Shown in pieces: positions 29,957 through 36,718 of a stretch of 60,678 nt of DNA. Under the pieces are notes generated by a model. That model was given only the letters and a program-made list of their open reading frames with translations. It did no database searches and was not told the DNA's origin. Numbering within the stretch: the stretch's first letter is position 1; each line of letters begins with the position of its first letter. Made by a program: the position numbers and the translations under genes. The stretch lies in contig JBBQXJ010000019.1 of the NCBI GenBank assembly GCA_038209745.1, positions 1-60,678 of the forward strand, written 5' to 3'. Origin of the DNA: Verrucomicrobiota bacterium (GTDB taxonomy: Bacteria > Verrucomicrobiota > Verrucomicrobiia > Limisphaerales > CANJSG01).

Positions 29957-32704
29957 CTATTTGGCCGGAGCAAGGGTGAGCGAGCTCAAGACCATCAACT
30001 GGTCGTTGGGCTTGGCCGTGGCGTTCTTGAAGAGCACGAAGAGCGTGTGTTGGCCGTGGGTTTCCTTGAGCGGAATGGAGACGCCGCCGGCGATGGGCGC
30101 GGCGGTCTGCGCGCCGGGGGTGGAGATGCCGTGGTCGAGCGAGACCGGTGCGGATTTCTCGGCTCCGCCGGTCGAGGCGGAGAGCGAGGCGTTGCCGAGG
30201 AGCGTTCCGTTCACCGGATCATCCAAACGGACCTCGATGTCGCCGCCGGCTTGGCCCTGGGCGATCAGCTCCAGTCGGCCGACTCCCGTCAGGTCCACAT
30301 CGCTGATCTGCCAGCGGGCGCCGGATTTGGCGAAGGTCTTTCCGTTGCGGGATTCCAGCCCGCTGGTCTGCTTCGCGCTTTTGATCGGGAAGATCGGGCT
30401 GTGCAGCACTTGGAGGGATTCGCCGCTAAGGGGCGTGCCGGCGTCGCCGCCCTGGTCGGTGTAGGCGGCTCGGAGGATGAGCGAGCTGTCGGCGTCGTCC
30501 TTCGGCGGATGCGGCACGAAGCTCCCGGTCAGAGGCAGGGGCTGGGTGTTCGGGCCGCCGAGGCTGAGGATGTATTGCAGGATCGACGCGGCTTCGTTCT
30601 CGGAGATCCGCGCGTTCGGCGGCATGGAGACTTCGCCCCAGGAACCGTTGCCGCCGGTCACGATCTTCTTGGCCAGCCGGTCCGGCGCCGCGGCATCGCC
30701 GCGATATTTGGCGGCGATCTGGGTGAAGCTCGGGCCGACCAGCTTGCCGTCGACGAGATGGCAGGCTCGGCAGCTGCCCTGGGCGATCAGGGCCTGGGCC
30801 ACGGGGAAGCGCGCGGCGGCGGCTTCGCCCGGAGCGGCGCCCTTCAGCTTGGCCACGTCGAAGTCGGCCGCAGCATAGTCGATGCTCAGGGCCACGCGTT
30901 CGGCTGGGATCTTGCCGCTGGCCAACGTGCCGTCTTCGGCATCGCTGACGTCGACCGAGTAGGCCAAAGCATGGTCCGGGAAATAGAACATCGAATTGCC
31001 CTTGGTTTTCACCGCGACGACCGGCGGCTCGTTGCCGGAGACGATGCCGACGGTCTTGCTGTCGCTGGCGCCGGCGGGATCGGTCACGGTGAGTCGGGCG
31101 ACGACGGAGCCCACGCTGTCGAGCCGCACGGTGGGGTTGGCCGTGGTGAAGACTTTCGGCGCGACGCCGGTCTCGAAGACGTCCCAATGGTAGGCCAGCG
31201 CGTCGCCGTCTGGATCGCGGGTGCCGGCGGAACTCAGCTTCACGTCGAAGGGAGGCACGCCCCCGGTCTTGTCGGCGGCGACCATCGCGATGGGCTTGCG
31301 GTTGCCGCCCTCGTATTCGATGCGGACGAGCTTGGCGTCGGCGCTGAATTGGAACCATTTGCTGCCATATTCCAGCACGTAGAGATCGCCGCTGGGGCCG
31401 AACTTCAGATCGATGGGCTCGATGGGTTTGTAGTCCTTTAGGATCCGCTCCATCGAGGCGTAGTCGCCGTTGGACTTCATCGAGATCGACACGATCAAGT
31501 TCCGGGACAGTTCTGCGGCGATCCATCTGCCCTCGTAGTAGGCGGGCCAAGGACGTGCGGCGTCGGGGAAATCCGCCCGCCGATAGACCGGGCCACCGAC
31601 GGCCGCACGACCACCGCTGCCCAGTTCGGGGAACTTGTCCGAAACGGCGTAGGGATAGTAGATGAACGACGGCGCCATCGGCGGCAGTTCCTTCAGGCCG
31701 GTGTTGTTCGGGGAATTGTTGACCGGATGGGTGGGATCCTTGGGCGCGCCGGGTTTGTTTGCGGCGTAGTCGAACCACGGGAAGGCCGATTCGCCGACGA
31801 AGTAGGGCCAGCCGAAGAAGCCGGGGCTGCGGGCCTGGTTCAATTCGTCATAGCCGCGCGGGCCGATCTCCGTGTCCTTCTGCGCGTCGGGGCCGATCTC
31901 GCCCCAATAGACGTAGCCTGTCTGGCTGTCCACGGACACGCGCCAGGCGTTGCGATGGCCCATCGTGTAGATCTCGGGCCGCGTCTTCGCTGTGCCGGGC
32001 GGAAACAGGTTGCCTTTCGGGATCGTGTAGCTGCCGTCCGGTTCGGGATGGATGCGGAGGATCTTGCCTTCGAGGCTGTCGGTGCTGGCCGTGCCGCGTT
32101 GATCGTCCCAGCTGCTGCGGCCGGGCCGTTCATCGGTGTGGGCCGTGAGGGCGTTGCCCGTGTTGTTGCCAATGGTGACGTAGAGATTGCCGGCCTTGTC
32201 CCACGTCATGCCGCCGCCCGTGTGGCAGCAGGTTTCCCGTTGGGCGTGCCATTCCAGCATGACCTTCTCGGAATTGGCCACGAGCACGTCGTCGTGGACG
32301 TCCCAGCGGCTGATGACGGCCTTCGGCTCGGTGGGATGGAAGTAGTAGAGATAGATGTGCCCGTTCTCGGCGAACTTGGGATCCACGGTCAGACCCACGA
32401 GTCCCTGCTCCTGGTTGCCGACGTTGTTGACCGAGAGCACGCCCATCGTTTTCACGCCCGGGATCTTCGGGTCGTAAACCTTCAACACGCCCCGGCGCTC
32501 GATGAGGTAGACCCGGCCGTCGGGCAGGACGCTGAACTCCATCGGCTCATTGAGCGTGCCTTCGGTCAGCACGACGGCAGTGAACCGGCTGGGATCGGGC
32601 GCCGTTCCGGGTTCTGCGGCGCGGAGGGAAGAGGCGAACGGAAAGGATAACAACACGGCCGCGAGGAGAGCGGCGCGTCCCGGGAAGGGGGAACGAATGG
32701 GCAT
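29957..32704 (-). CDS. Secreted PQQ-dependent sugar dehydrogenase (GSDH) + PKD + cytochrome c + CBM6-like protein
   Basis: Signal peptide; EQGLVGL..DPKF, CCHTGGG, GKILRIHP, EIYTMGHRN, DPDGDAL.Y.WD, heme motif CRACH...VGPSF. Confidence 0.88.
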   Translation of the reverse strand: MPIRSPFPGRAALLAAVLLSFPFASSLRAAEPGTAPDPSRFTAVVLTEGTLNEPMEFSVLPDGRVYLIERRGVLKVYDPKIPGVKTMGVLSVNNVGNQEQGLVGLTVDPKFAENGHIYLYYFHPTEPKAVISRWDVHDDVLVANSEKVMLEWHAQRETCCHTGGGMTWDKAGNLYVTIGNNTGNALTAHTDERPGRSSWDDQRGTASTDSLEGKILRIHPEPDGSYTIPKGNLFPPGTAKTRPEIYTMGHRNAWRVSVDSQTGYVYWGEIGPDAQKDTEIGPRGYDELNQARSPGFFGWPYFVGESAFPWFDYAANKPGAPKDPTHPVNNSPNNTGLKELPPMAPSFIYYPYAVSDKFPELGSGGRAAVGGPVYRRADFPDAARPWPAYYEGRWIAAELSRNLIVSISMKSNGDYASMERILKDYKPIEPIDLKFGPSGDLYVLEYGSKWFQFSADAKLVRIEYEGGNRKPIAMVAADKTGGVPPFDVKLSSAGTRDPDGDALAYHWDVFETGVAPKVFTTANPTVRLDSVGSVVARLTVTDPAGASDSKTVGIVSGNEPPVVAVKTKGNSMFYFPDHALAYSVDVSDAEDGTLASGKIPAERVALSIDYAAADFDVAKLKGAAPGEAAAARFPVAQALIAQGSCRACHLVDGKLVGPSFTQIAAKYRGDAAAPDRLAKKIVTGGNGSWGEVSMPPNARISENEAASILQYILSLGGPNTQPLPLTGSFVPHPPKDDADSSLILRAAYTDQGGDAGTPLSGESLQVLHSPIFPIKSAKQTSGLESRNGKTFAKSGARWQISDVDLTGVGRLELIAQGQAGGDIEVRLDDPVNGTLLGNASLSASTGGAEKSAPVSLDHGISTPGAQTAAPIAGGVSIPLKETHGQHTLFVLFKNATAKPNDQLMVLSSLTLAPAK

Positions 32705-33012
32705 GGGCGGATTTGGCGGGGATGGACGCTCAGGAATCAAGAGCGATGTCGGCGGTTCGACGGCATCAAGGGTGGGGTTCTTCAGGCGCAATGGTCCCGA
32801 TCGAAGTGGATCTGCCTGCTCGTTGAACGTTTCCCGGGTCTGCCCTGAACGGGTGGGTCGGACCTGCTGGGTCGCCCCATTCTCCGCAAAGACGAGCCCA
32901 GCGACACTTTGATGAAACTTCGGCCGGCGCGATTTGATTCGTCCGCCCGGTGGTCCACCAGGCTTGACCCGTCTGGCCGCGTTTGCTTCCTTTCGAGCGC
33001 ATTCAGGATGCA

Positions 33013-33097
33013 TCCGGGTCCGCGGAAAGGGCTGAGCCCAACTGTCAATTGCCGGTATCACGATCAACCTTGATGCTGCCTGTCAGCGGACCTCGGG
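33013..33097 (+). ncRNA. Candidate structured cis-regulatory leader RNA of the ankyrin gene
   Basis: Closing stem ccg-ggtccgc (33014-23) / gcggacc-t-cgg (33086-96); inner gaaagg/cctgtc, gggc-tga-gccc and atca-acct-tgat; TTGACC at 32964; AGAAAGG before the ATG at 33116. Confidence 0.5.
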
Positions 33098-33115
33098 CTT
33101 CAGCAGAAAGGTTAT

Positions 33116-34639
33116 ATGTCCAAGCCGCTTCCCCCGCAGCCTGATCTGGAGCAACTCCGGAAACAGGCCAAAGACCTCCTCAAATCTCTCAAGTCCGGCA
33201 ACCCCGAGGCGCTCCGGCGCTTCCGGGAGAACCATCCGGACCATTCGTCTCTATTGGAGCAAGAAATGCAGACGGCGGCTGTTTCTCTGGCCGATGCGCA
33301 GCTCGTGCTCGCCCGGGAACATGGTTTCGCCAGTTGGCCAAAGCTCAAGGATCACGTGGACGCCATCCTGATCGAGAGCGGCGATCCGCTGGAGCTCCTG
33401 AAGAACGCGTTCCACGCGGATGATGCTTCGTTGTTCGCCAAGCTGCTCGTCCGCCATCCCGCGATCAAAGCCCGCCTCAACGAGCCCATCGGGCCCTTCG
33501 ATTCGCCGCCCATCACCCACGTCAAGAGCCGGGAGATGCTGGATGTCTTCCTGGCTGCTGGAGGGGACATCGATGCCAAGAGCCGCTGGTGGGCGGGTGG
33601 CTTTGGCCTGCTGCACAACGCGCCGCCCGAGCTGGCCGCCTACGCCATCGAACGCGGCGCCGTGGTGGACATTCACGCGGCGGCGCGGCTCGGCCGGATG
33701 GACCGGCTCCGGGAACGGGTTGCGGCGGATCCGTCGCTCGTTCACGCCCGAGGCGGCGACGGCCAGACGCCGCTGCATTTCGCGAGCACCGTCGAGATCG
33801 CCGAGTTTCTGCTGAATCTCGGTGCCGACATCGACGCCCGCGACTTGGACCATGAATCCACCCCGGCCCAGTGGATGCTCGGCGACCGGCCGGAGATCGC
33901 GCGGTTCCTGGTCCAGCGCGGTTGCCGGACCGACCTGCTCATGGCCGCTGCGCTCGGCGATGTGGATCGGGTCCGCCGTCATCTGGATGCGGAGCCGGGC
34001 TCCGTTTCGATGCGGGTGTCCGACGAATTCTTTCCGAAAATCAATCCACGGGCCGGCGGCACGATCTACCAATGGACCCTCGGCCCGGACCTGTCGGCCC
34101 ATGAAGCGGCGCGGAAGTTCGGCCACACGGATGTGCTCCGGCTGCTCATGGAGCGAAGCCCGGCCGAACTGAAGCTGCTCGCGGTCGCGCTCGGCGGCGA
34201 TGGGGTGGCGGTGACGGCGCTCCTGGCTGCCCATCCCGGATTGGTCGCCAGCCTGTCCGGTTCCACCCAGAGCCATCTGGCCCATGCCGCCCGCAACAAC
34301 AACCTCGCCGCCGTCCGGGTGATGCTCGGAGCCGGCTGGCCCGTGGACGCGAAGGGCCAGCACCAGGGCACGGCGCTCCATTGGGCCGCGTTTCATGGAA
34401 ACCTGGAAATGGTCGAGGCCATCCTGCCGCACCGGCCGCCGCTGGATCTGCCCGACGCCGACCACAAGGCGCCGCCCATCGGCTGGGCGACCTTTGGTTC
34501 CGAGCACGGATGGCATCGCGCCACCGGCAATTACGCGGGCGTGGTGGAAGCCTTGATCCGCGTGGGAGTGAAGCTGCCCAGACAACTCGCCGGAACGGAC
34601 GCGGTGAAGGAGGTTTTGCGGCGAAACCGGGCCGGGTAG
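33116..34639 (+). CDS. Ankyrin-repeat protein with N-terminal LPxxPDLEQLRKQAKDLL module
   Basis: LADAQLVLAREHGFASWPKLK N-domain; ankyrin motifs GGDGQTPLHFA, GADIDARD, GTALHWAAFHGN. Confidence 0.9.
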   Translation: MSKPLPPQPDLEQLRKQAKDLLKSLKSGNPEALRRFRENHPDHSSLLEQEMQTAAVSLADAQLVLAREHGFASWPKLKDHVDAILIESGDPLELLKNAFHADDASLFAKLLVRHPAIKARLNEPIGPFDSPPITHVKSREMLDVFLAAGGDIDAKSRWWAGGFGLLHNAPPELAAYAIERGAVVDIHAAARLGRMDRLRERVAADPSLVHARGGDGQTPLHFASTVEIAEFLLNLGADIDARDLDHESTPAQWMLGDRPEIARFLVQRGCRTDLLMAAALGDVDRVRRHLDAEPGSVSMRVSDEFFPKINPRAGGTIYQWTLGPDLSAHEAARKFGHTDVLRLLMERSPAELKLLAVALGGDGVAVTALLAAHPGLVASLSGSTQSHLAHAARNNNLAAVRVMLGAGWPVDAKGQHQGTALHWAAFHGNLEMVEAILPHRPPLDLPDADHKAPPIGWATFGSEHGWHRATGNYAGVVEALIRVGVKLPRQLAGTDAVKEVLRRNRAG

Positions 34640-34793
34640 GCCAGATGGTTCGTCTGTTTGGTCGCACAACCGATCTGGCGGCCCTTCATTTCAAAGGAGC
34701 GGATCTCCGTTTCGTGCAGGGTTTGGTTCCGGGGAAATCGCTGAATCAACCCGCAGCGCGTTCGAGAGAAGTTTGGAATGCGGACGGACAAAG

Positions 34794-34941
34794 CAACCTG
34801 AAAGGTTGTTATCCATTCGCCGGGGGTTGAGGAGCGCGGAGCGCGACGACACCCCTCCAGGGTGCGGGTCGCTGCGCGGACGCTTTCCGGGGGTGTCGCT
34901 GAGCTCAACCCCCGGCGAATGGATGCCAACCCTCCGGGTTG
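34794..34941. repeat. REP/BIME-like palindromic element
   Basis: caacctgaaaggttgttatccattcgccgggggttgag is inverted relative to ctcaacccccggcgaatggatgccaaccctccgggttg. Confidence 0.8.
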
Positions 34942-34950
34942 GACGCCCAT

Positions 34951-35127
34951 GCCCGAAGGCCACGAACGTGAGTAGCTGCGGGCGACAGCCCGGACCTCAG
35001 ACAGTCGGACGAAGCAACTGCGAAGCGGTTGAACCATGTGGGGTTCGACCGCTTCGCGGTCACGGGCTCTGCGGCGGGTGGTCTCCGGGTTGCACCCGGA
35101 GCTATTCACGTTCAAGGCCTCCGGCCT
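34951..35127. repeat. Second, different nested palindromic repeat
   Basis: Outer gaacgtgagtagct / agctattcacgttc; inner gcgaagcggttgaacc / ggttcgaccgcttcgc. Confidence 0.75.
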
Positions 35128-35149
35128 TGAAAATGCGGCCACGGCTTAA

Positions 35150-36718
<1,569 letters not shown>

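Follow-up and report, generated by a model that had tools for sequence, protein, structure and literature searches.

Pseudoknotted RNA structures that control translation from within the 5′ leader are known from several systems. Autogenous translational operators of this kind include the alpha-operon leader of Escherichia coli bound by S4, the rpsO leader bound by S15, and the 5′ pseudoknot of phage T4 gene 32. The ZTP/pfl riboswitch is a translational OFF switch in which two subdomains are joined by a long-range pseudoknot. Besides, the Chlorobi-RRM motif precedes genes for RRM proteins, and HEARO, an RNA motif tied to a single family of open reading frames (ORFs), IscB, proved to be a partner of the protein. 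The present study concerns a 60,678-nucleotide (nt) contig of a Verrucomicrobiota bacterium (JBBQXJ010000019.1, assembly GCA_038209745.1; the whole of it is called the window). Comparative analysis places positions 32999 to 33118 of the window as the predicted 5′ leader of the mRNA of an ankyrin gene, and as a member of a large family of structured cis-regulatory RNAs of about 120 nt that accompanies one N-terminal protein module (the N-module).

The leader resembles the S4, S15, and T4 gene 32 operators in that a pseudoknotted structure includes or abuts the ribosome site, precedes the gene for the supposed binder, and would act on translation. However, the proteins of those systems have a separate primary nucleic-acid target and their operators are lineage-restricted, whereas the putative partner here is an uncharacterised N-module mounted on many C-terminal parts, the RNA occurs in about ten phyla, and binding is what we infer. 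With ZTP/pfl the leader shares the conservation of its unpaired nucleotides and a linker that varies; in both, a pseudoknot connects the 5′ domain to a 3′ hairpin and the Shine-Dalgarno sequence is sequestered. Unlike ZTP/pfl, its gene association is with one protein module and not with a metabolic pathway, and it has no Rfam match. The Chlorobi-RRM and pnuC motifs are likewise structured leaders nearly exclusive to one kind of gene; in contrast, the tie found here is to an N-terminal domain whatever the rest of the gene, and it extends over many phyla and roughly ten thousand protein clusters.

Rfam 15 gave no match with E ≤ 10 between positions 32500 and 33500 and none at gathering score in the whole window; at 18 diverse member loci, it gave nothing at the motif position with E ≤ 1. 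These results agree with the sequence-only reading of the window, an earlier note made from its letters and ORFs, which could match the segment to no riboswitch it could name. A full-text search of openly accessible articles, apart from motif-catalogue supplements, found no description of the RNA. A term search in passages of a 2026 preprint on noncoding families found none either. We rate the RNA as a new family of a known general kind, the structured translational leader. The unusual feature is the domain-level, pan-phylum coupling of leader to N-module.

The predicted fold comprises a 5′ domain and a 3′ hairpin on the plus strand. The transcript would begin with the hairpin P0 (32999-33011), formed by the pairs G32999-C33011, C33000-G33010, A33001-U33009, and U33002-A33008 around the loop UCAGG. 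The CAGG of this loop (33004-33007) pairs with CUG (33042-33044) in a covarying pseudoknot, PK-A (33004-33044), which in the window has three base pairs and a G-A mismatch, position 33041 being A where the family has C. A second, long-range pairing, PK-B (33017-33092), joins GGUCCGC (33017-33023) to GCGGACC (33086-33092), the latter strand lying in the P3 loop. Between PK-B and the covarying hairpin P2 (GGGC-UGA-GCCC, 33029-33039, with 33029-33032 paired to 33036-33039) stands the joiner GGAAA (33024-33028), which is unpaired and nearly invariant, its columns being at least 90% conserved in 150 sequences. A linker (33045-33065), conserved in neither sequence nor length in the alignment A5 described below, leads to the P4-P3 hairpin (33066-33113), which is supported by covariation and by individual folding. 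In it, P4 pairs AACCUU (33066-33071) with AAGGUU (33108-33113) and GCU (33075-33077) with AGC (33102-33104), and P3 pairs GCCUG (33078-33082) with CGGGC (33094-33098). The Shine-Dalgarno sequence AAAGG (33107-33111) lies inside P4, and the helix ends 2 nt before the AUG (33116).

The strings on which the sequence-only reading had built its proposal are all present, namely the two PK-B strands, the P2 sequence, the TTGACC box, AGAAAGG (33105-33111), and the ATG. Its arrangement of them was correct in part. The GUCCGC/GCGGAC core of its long stem corresponds to PK-B and is well paired in the family, whereas the ccg/cgg extension of that stem (33014-33016 with 33094-33096) competes with P3 and is not conserved. 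Two further pairings it drew had to be replaced: instead of gaaagg/cctgtc, CCUG (33079-33082) pairs with CGGG (33094-33097) within P3, and instead of atca-acct-tgat, AACCUU pairs with AAGGUU, burying the Shine-Dalgarno sequence. The 5′ hairpin and its loop pseudoknot had been missed. An upstream peptide was also considered as an explanation for the segment and was rejected: in the window, the 21-codon frame concerned starts with an ATG at 33009 that most relatives lack, and the G-U pairs fit only a plus-strand RNA. On the window sequence alone, structure is not above chance, as the minimum free energy of positions 33005 to 33120 is −36.1 kcal/mol and that of shuffled sequences −35.75 ± 3.76 kcal/mol (z = −0.09).

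Across the family, the fold covaries. For orthologues and paralogue-like genes in 61 related genomes, the upstream region is more conserved than the proteins themselves. A covariance model, R1, was built from ten leaders of related genomes, and 98 model-aligned sequences form A5, which for the P3-P4 helices is fitted to the model. In A5, 93.4% of cells of the whole fold are paired vs. 80.4% in shuffles, and double changes occur in 28 of 32 pairs vs. 16.8; thus, the upstream regions of homologues are conserved and covarying, as the idea of a conserved RNA in the sequence-only reading required. The corresponding covariation score of 0.358 (0.145 in shuffles) was reached by none of 500 shuffles, and slid controls stayed at or below 0.066. 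PK-B is paired in 95.6% of cells, with double changes in five of its seven pairs, an outermost pair that varies among AU (28), GC (19), and CG (4), and compensated variants of the types GUUCGC/GCGAAC, GAUCCGC/GCGGAUC, and GUCUGC/GCAGAC. Since PK-B is absent from the R1 structure, its pairing and the changes of its outermost pair are not an artefact of fitting. P3 (98.7% paired) and P4 (double changes in nine of nine pairs) are model-fitted in this alignment. RNAalifold on a raw MAFFT alignment recovered the structure only in part.

The 5′ domain was assessed in A6, a plain MAFFT alignment with 150 distinct sequences; 54 of these had been chosen with a pattern in which part of P2 and two PK-A bases are fixed. 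In A6, double changes are present in all 12 pairs of P0, PK-A, and P2, and 93.6% of cells are paired vs. 84.1% in shuffles. The values for P0 are four of four pairs with double changes and 89.8% of cells paired, and for PK-A four of four and 91.0%, with an outer pair that is CG in 48, AU in 42, GC in 12, and UA in 5 sequences; A5 agrees. P2, a hairpin already recognised in the sequence-only reading, is paired in 99.7 to 99.8% of cells in A5 and A6, again with double changes in all four pairs. About 24 leader positions are at least 90% conserved across phyla in the 150 sequences. Together, A5 and A6 describe a covarying structured domain in a 5′ leader, which is the structural property expected of a riboswitch class. 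One variant leader was noticed in a Thermoanaerobaculia record (L110:1441-1563): the module gene has its ATG almost immediately after P0, PK-A, and P2, the P3-P4 hairpin is missing, and the 5′ strand of PK-B is altered to GUCCAC.

The −35-like box TTGACC (32964-32969, plus strand) lies 35 nt before the first RNA base, a spacing that fits a transcription start near 32999. In alignment A1, 10 of 13 upstream regions from Verrucomicrobiota retain TTGAC. A TAnnnT box is present at 67 of 97 family loci, where 18.6 are expected, and peaks 14 to 16 nt before the first model position, which places the putative transcript start at P0. The window itself has no TAnnnT box, and a scan of positions 32700 to 33200 detected neither a full sigma-70 consensus promoter nor a terminator-like site. 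When the 3′ domains of family members were folded individually (mean −22 kcal/mol), at least 70% of positions −14 to −5, the Shine-Dalgarno region, were paired in 90 of 97, as in an expression platform that occludes the ribosome site. The structured leader thereby overlaps the ribosome site of the module gene, which is the layout of an autogenous operator. As a covarying hairpin occludes the predicted start site and no terminator was found, translational control by start-site occlusion is well supported on comparative grounds. We also considered an "on" state in which the invariant GGAAAGG would act as a Shine-Dalgarno mimic and capture the anti-Shine-Dalgarno strand. This proved not distinctive, being the best stretch in only 57 of 93 leaders (duplex energy −7.2 kcal/mol vs. 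−6.7 kcal/mol for the best other 5′ stretch).

The gene behind the leader (33116-34639, plus strand; ORF list and Pfam) encodes a 507-residue protein in which the N-module is followed by ankyrin repeats. The repeats make up the C-terminal four fifths and match Pfam Ank families above cut-off (best E 2.3e-18; PF00023, 65.7 bits; PF12796, 65.8 bits). The N-module covers residues 1 to about 88 (33116-33379, plus strand) and reads LPxxPxLEQLRKQAKDLL ... AQLVLAREHGFASW; its family, of about 85 residues, has the consensus LPxRPxLxxLRxQAKxLL...AQLVIAREYGFxSW. No Pfam or NCBIfam family matches these first 88 or so residues. The AF2 model contains five predicted helices (pLDDT 77), and an ESM Atlas search with the module returned nothing useful. 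We had presumed the second half of the module to be SAP-like or helix-extension-helix-like, and the fold and profile searches did not support this. The median start of the module in the ORFs behind the RNA is residue 1. The module is basic, with a mean net charge of +3.6 and an isoelectric point (pI) of 9.3, 86% of modules being above pI 8; the remainder of these proteins is acidic, at −2.3 per 85 residues. A profile of the module matched 9,939 representative clusters at 50% identity (E ≤ 0.001), and in these the best stretch is nearly always N-terminal. Two or three tandem stretches are often present, and ORFs of this type include G307:C10:311872-312384, G310:C25:65172-65666, and G312:C31:10404-10925.

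The association of the two elements holds from either side. In a protein-first sample, the module alignment A4 was scanned over one genome per species, and the best 80 of at least 536 loci were used. R1 found the RNA directly upstream of the module in 77 of these 80, and the three misses have less than 70 nt of upstream sequence each. In an RNA-first sample, a 25-letter pattern from the 5′ domain alone was run over metagenome contigs and gave, among the matches listed, 71 loci with at least 330 nt downstream, at 67 of which the module is encoded. The four exceptions are a degenerate module (L187), an ankyrin gene without module (L173), and two loci with no clear gene (L153 and L178). Furthermore, the module is present in 96 of 97 ORFs behind model matches. 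These counts, with the varied Pfam content downstream, bear out the earlier proposal that a conserved RNA goes with an N-domain to which variable C-terminal parts are fused. The accompanying suggestion, that other genes sharing this N-domain are preceded by similar text, holds for other genomes, as the protein-first loci demonstrate, and not within the genome of the window. There, R1 has one match (33000-33118, 122.8 bits), the RNA and the N-module occur in one copy each, and no further copy was detected by BLAST or by the covariance model.

Genome samples at increasing distance gave a similar picture. Within the same order, R1 yielded 21 matches in 18 of 151 genomes, the window's own included, and 19 of the 21 end at the start codon of a module-bearing ORF. 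Among these 19 are two orthologues (L030, G005:C169; L036, G107:C298) broken by frameshifts or early stops soon after the module start, for which sequencing errors or pseudogenes are possible. A phylum-wide sample gave 11 matches in 7 of 151 genomes, the window's own included; nine of the ten outside the window precede the module, and the tenth is weak (E 0.008) and stands before an unrelated AT-rich frame. Five whole genomes of other phyla contain six RNAs and six module genes, and one genome (G233), searched with filters off, contains eight of each. Across nine whole genomes, RNA and gene counts are equal in seven, and the other two have a leader and no module. In a sample of 201 Actinomycetota genomes, nine had a module-like match, with the RNA found at four, partly at one, weakly at one, and not at three.

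Genes that lack the module are informative about what the RNA follows. Three genes that are orthologous to the ankyrin core encoded in the window, and that lack the module, showed no RNA when searched with filters off. Among intact ankyrin genes that have lost the module, the leader is decayed in two of three (L042 and L173, not L038). One genome (G098, 96% complete), in which no module was found, retains only the 3′ hairpin of the leader, the 5′ domain having decayed, and the metagenome ankyrin gene L173 has lost the 3′ half of its leader. The RNA thus appears to follow the N-module and not the ankyrin core, and the comparative counts point to a coupling that is close to one-to-one, whatever follows the module. 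Leader and N-module together suggest a portable RNA-plus-protein control unit.

The best 80 of at least 536 module loci fall, according to record titles, into about ten phyla, among them Verrucomicrobiota, Acidobacteriota, Planctomycetota, Gemmatimonadota, Chloroflexota, Poribacteria, several Pseudomonadota, Methylomirabilota, a Solirubrobacteraceae genome, and others. Isolates named as carriers in the titles are Paracidobacterium acidisoli 4G-K13, Inquilinus ginsengisoli 584, and Aliifodinibius sp. For the C-terminal partners, 62 of the 97 downstream ORFs were scanned against Pfam. Ankyrin repeats are present in 48 of them, one of which also has TPR; one ORF has Clp_N and one a glyoxalase domain; three have only sub-threshold matches (LRR_14, DUF6263, and FliG_N); and nine have no Pfam match at all, among them ORFs that are complete at 134 and 203 residues. 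Fusions of the module to leucine-rich repeats, a beta-lactamase-type domain, and others were added by a word-based protein search; these are known from the proteins and not from their upstream DNA. As a separate observation, the leader and module of L060, in a record titled Candidatus Kapaibacterium sp., are nearly identical to verrucomicrobial ones (69% module identity, 138 bits), which suggests either a binning error or a recent transfer.

Around the unit, the intergenic region 32714-33115 is divergent, with the ankyrin gene on one side and an opposite-strand gene on the other. The latter (29957-32713, minus strand) encodes a large secreted-looking protein with a glucose/sorbosone dehydrogenase domain, a PKD domain, cytochrome c, and a weak CBM6 match. 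Downstream, about 900 nt (34640-35570) separate the end of the ankyrin gene from the likely start of a tgt-like gene; this stretch holds only overlapping mechanical ORFs and has no Rfam match.

How the unit works can be approached from these data. We tentatively favour, at a little under an even chance, that the leader is an autogenous translational operator bound by the N-module. By the comparative evidence, the P3-P4 hairpin pairs the Shine-Dalgarno sequence and reaches up to the start codon, and its P3 loop pairs with GUCCGC of the 5′ domain, so that sensor and ribosome site come together in one fold. The basic N-module of the finished or nascent protein could then bind the folded 5′ domain docked on the P3 loop. 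Such binding would lock the start-site hairpin and limit further initiation, giving negative feedback. Promoter, leader, and N-module would move together as a self-regulating cassette, joined by fusion to different C-terminal domains. Autoregulation is preferred because the link is to a domain rather than a pathway, because it holds in both directions and across phyla, because loss of the module tends to go with loss or decay of the RNA, and because the module, a basic domain, emerges before the rest of the protein.

Several observations weigh against this view. Binding of the leader by the N-module is our conjecture, and physical linkage by itself makes a leader and the first domain of its gene travel together. 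The predicted fold of the module (pLDDT 77) matched no known RNA-binding fold: Foldseek gave nothing at E ≤ 0.001, a VIA wide structure search gave a best Z of only 3.8, and the best match in a sequence-profile search of the PDB had an E of 0.23. The unpaired leader nucleotides are nearly invariant across phyla and the modules are only 35 to 55% identical; invariant unpaired bases beside a diverged partner are more typical of metabolite aptamers than of protein operators. No conserved alternative structure for an "on" state, with the ribosome site accessible, was detected in our analysis. R1 found no RNA at four weak module matches (L281, from Gemmatimonadaceae, and L286, L287, and L290), so for diverged modules either the coupling is looser or the RNA is beyond the reach of R1. 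Finally, in one genome (G130, assembly 74% complete) an intact leader of 103 bits, with PK-B compensatorily changed to GUUCGC/GCGAAC, stands before an ankyrin orthologue that precisely lacks the module (L038, G130:C117), and no module was found in that assembly.

Some of these points would be accommodated by a small-molecule or ion riboswitch, in which the 5′ pseudoknotted domain is the aptamer, the ligand stabilises docking of the P3 loop and the start-site hairpin (an OFF switch), and the N-module proteins act on or answer to the ligand. The complex, doubly pseudoknotted fold with its roughly 24 positions conserved across phyla is what such an aptamer would display, the expression platform is of the usual translational type, and the two-domain layout with a variable linker and long-range pairing recalls known aptamers such as ZTP. 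The intact leader of G130, whose incomplete assembly showed no module, also suits it. Nevertheless, genes of one riboswitch class are associated by a common ligand, whereas this RNA is associated only with the N-module and never with transporters or pathway enzymes, as the 96 of 97 ORFs and, among the matches listed, 67 of 71 RNA-first loci illustrate. The RNA also follows the module and not the remainder of the gene, it decays with module loss in L042 and L173 as opposed to L038, and gene context offers no hint of a ligand. We regard a riboswitch as rather unlikely.

We assign still less probability, and consider it distinctly unlikely, that the leader acts by some other means, as an RNA thermometer or stress-melted hairpin, as the target of a general RNA-binding factor or small RNA, or as a 5′-terminal structure mainly protecting the message from decay. 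A long start-site hairpin with internal loops and G-U pairs, the position of the structure at the very 5′ end of the transcript (from the TAnnnT spacing), and the lack of a detected alternative "on" fold are in its favour. However, thermometers of the ROSE or fourU type are simple hairpins with weak pairs across the Shine-Dalgarno sequence, and the hairpin present here is accompanied by a conserved pseudoknotted 5′ domain; neither a thermometer nor a stabiliser needs 45 such nucleotides with invariant unpaired bases, and the exclusive tie to one protein module across phyla would be left unexplained. An N-module that captures the 5′ domain, possibly after processing, as the working partner of a ribonucleoprotein, with ankyrin or other repeats bringing in protein partners, would explain the one-to-one pairing, the basic module, and the frequent module-only and tandem-module proteins, and HEARO with IscB is a precedent. 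This appears very unlikely to us, as the RNA reaches up to the start codon and covers the ribosome site, features that a free partner RNA could do without, and no terminator (scan of 32700-33200) or processing signal was seen.

Returning to autoregulation by the N-module, its general form may be stated as a portable feedback cassette of promoter, pseudoknotted operator RNA, and RNA-binding N-module, fused to many repeat and enzyme domains in at least ten phyla, such that any protein with this head limits its own synthesis or else assembles with its own leader into a ribonucleoprotein. We see this as nearly, and not quite, an even prospect. If true, either way the N-module would be a new RNA-binding domain family, very large at about 10,000 clusters (50% identity), and would have a cognate RNA of its own.

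Structured leaders with such breadth across phyla are seldom found, and in most cases they have opened up new biology. The present RNA is abundant, to judge from the metagenome matches and from the 9,939 clusters of the linked module, and its carriers include soil and aquatic phyla that are hard to study, such as Acidobacteriota, Verrucomicrobiota, Planctomycetota, Gemmatimonadota, Chloroflexota, Poribacteria, and Actinomycetota. Since named isolates carry the leader-module unit, experiments are feasible. The near one-to-one tie to an unannotated module provides a directly testable hypothesis for both, namely on the signal sensed by the RNA and on the function of the module. Should the module fail to bind the RNA, the leader would be a strong orphan-riboswitch candidate; should it bind, the pair would constitute a modular autoregulation device that synthetic biology might use, and the module a new family of RNA-binding domains.

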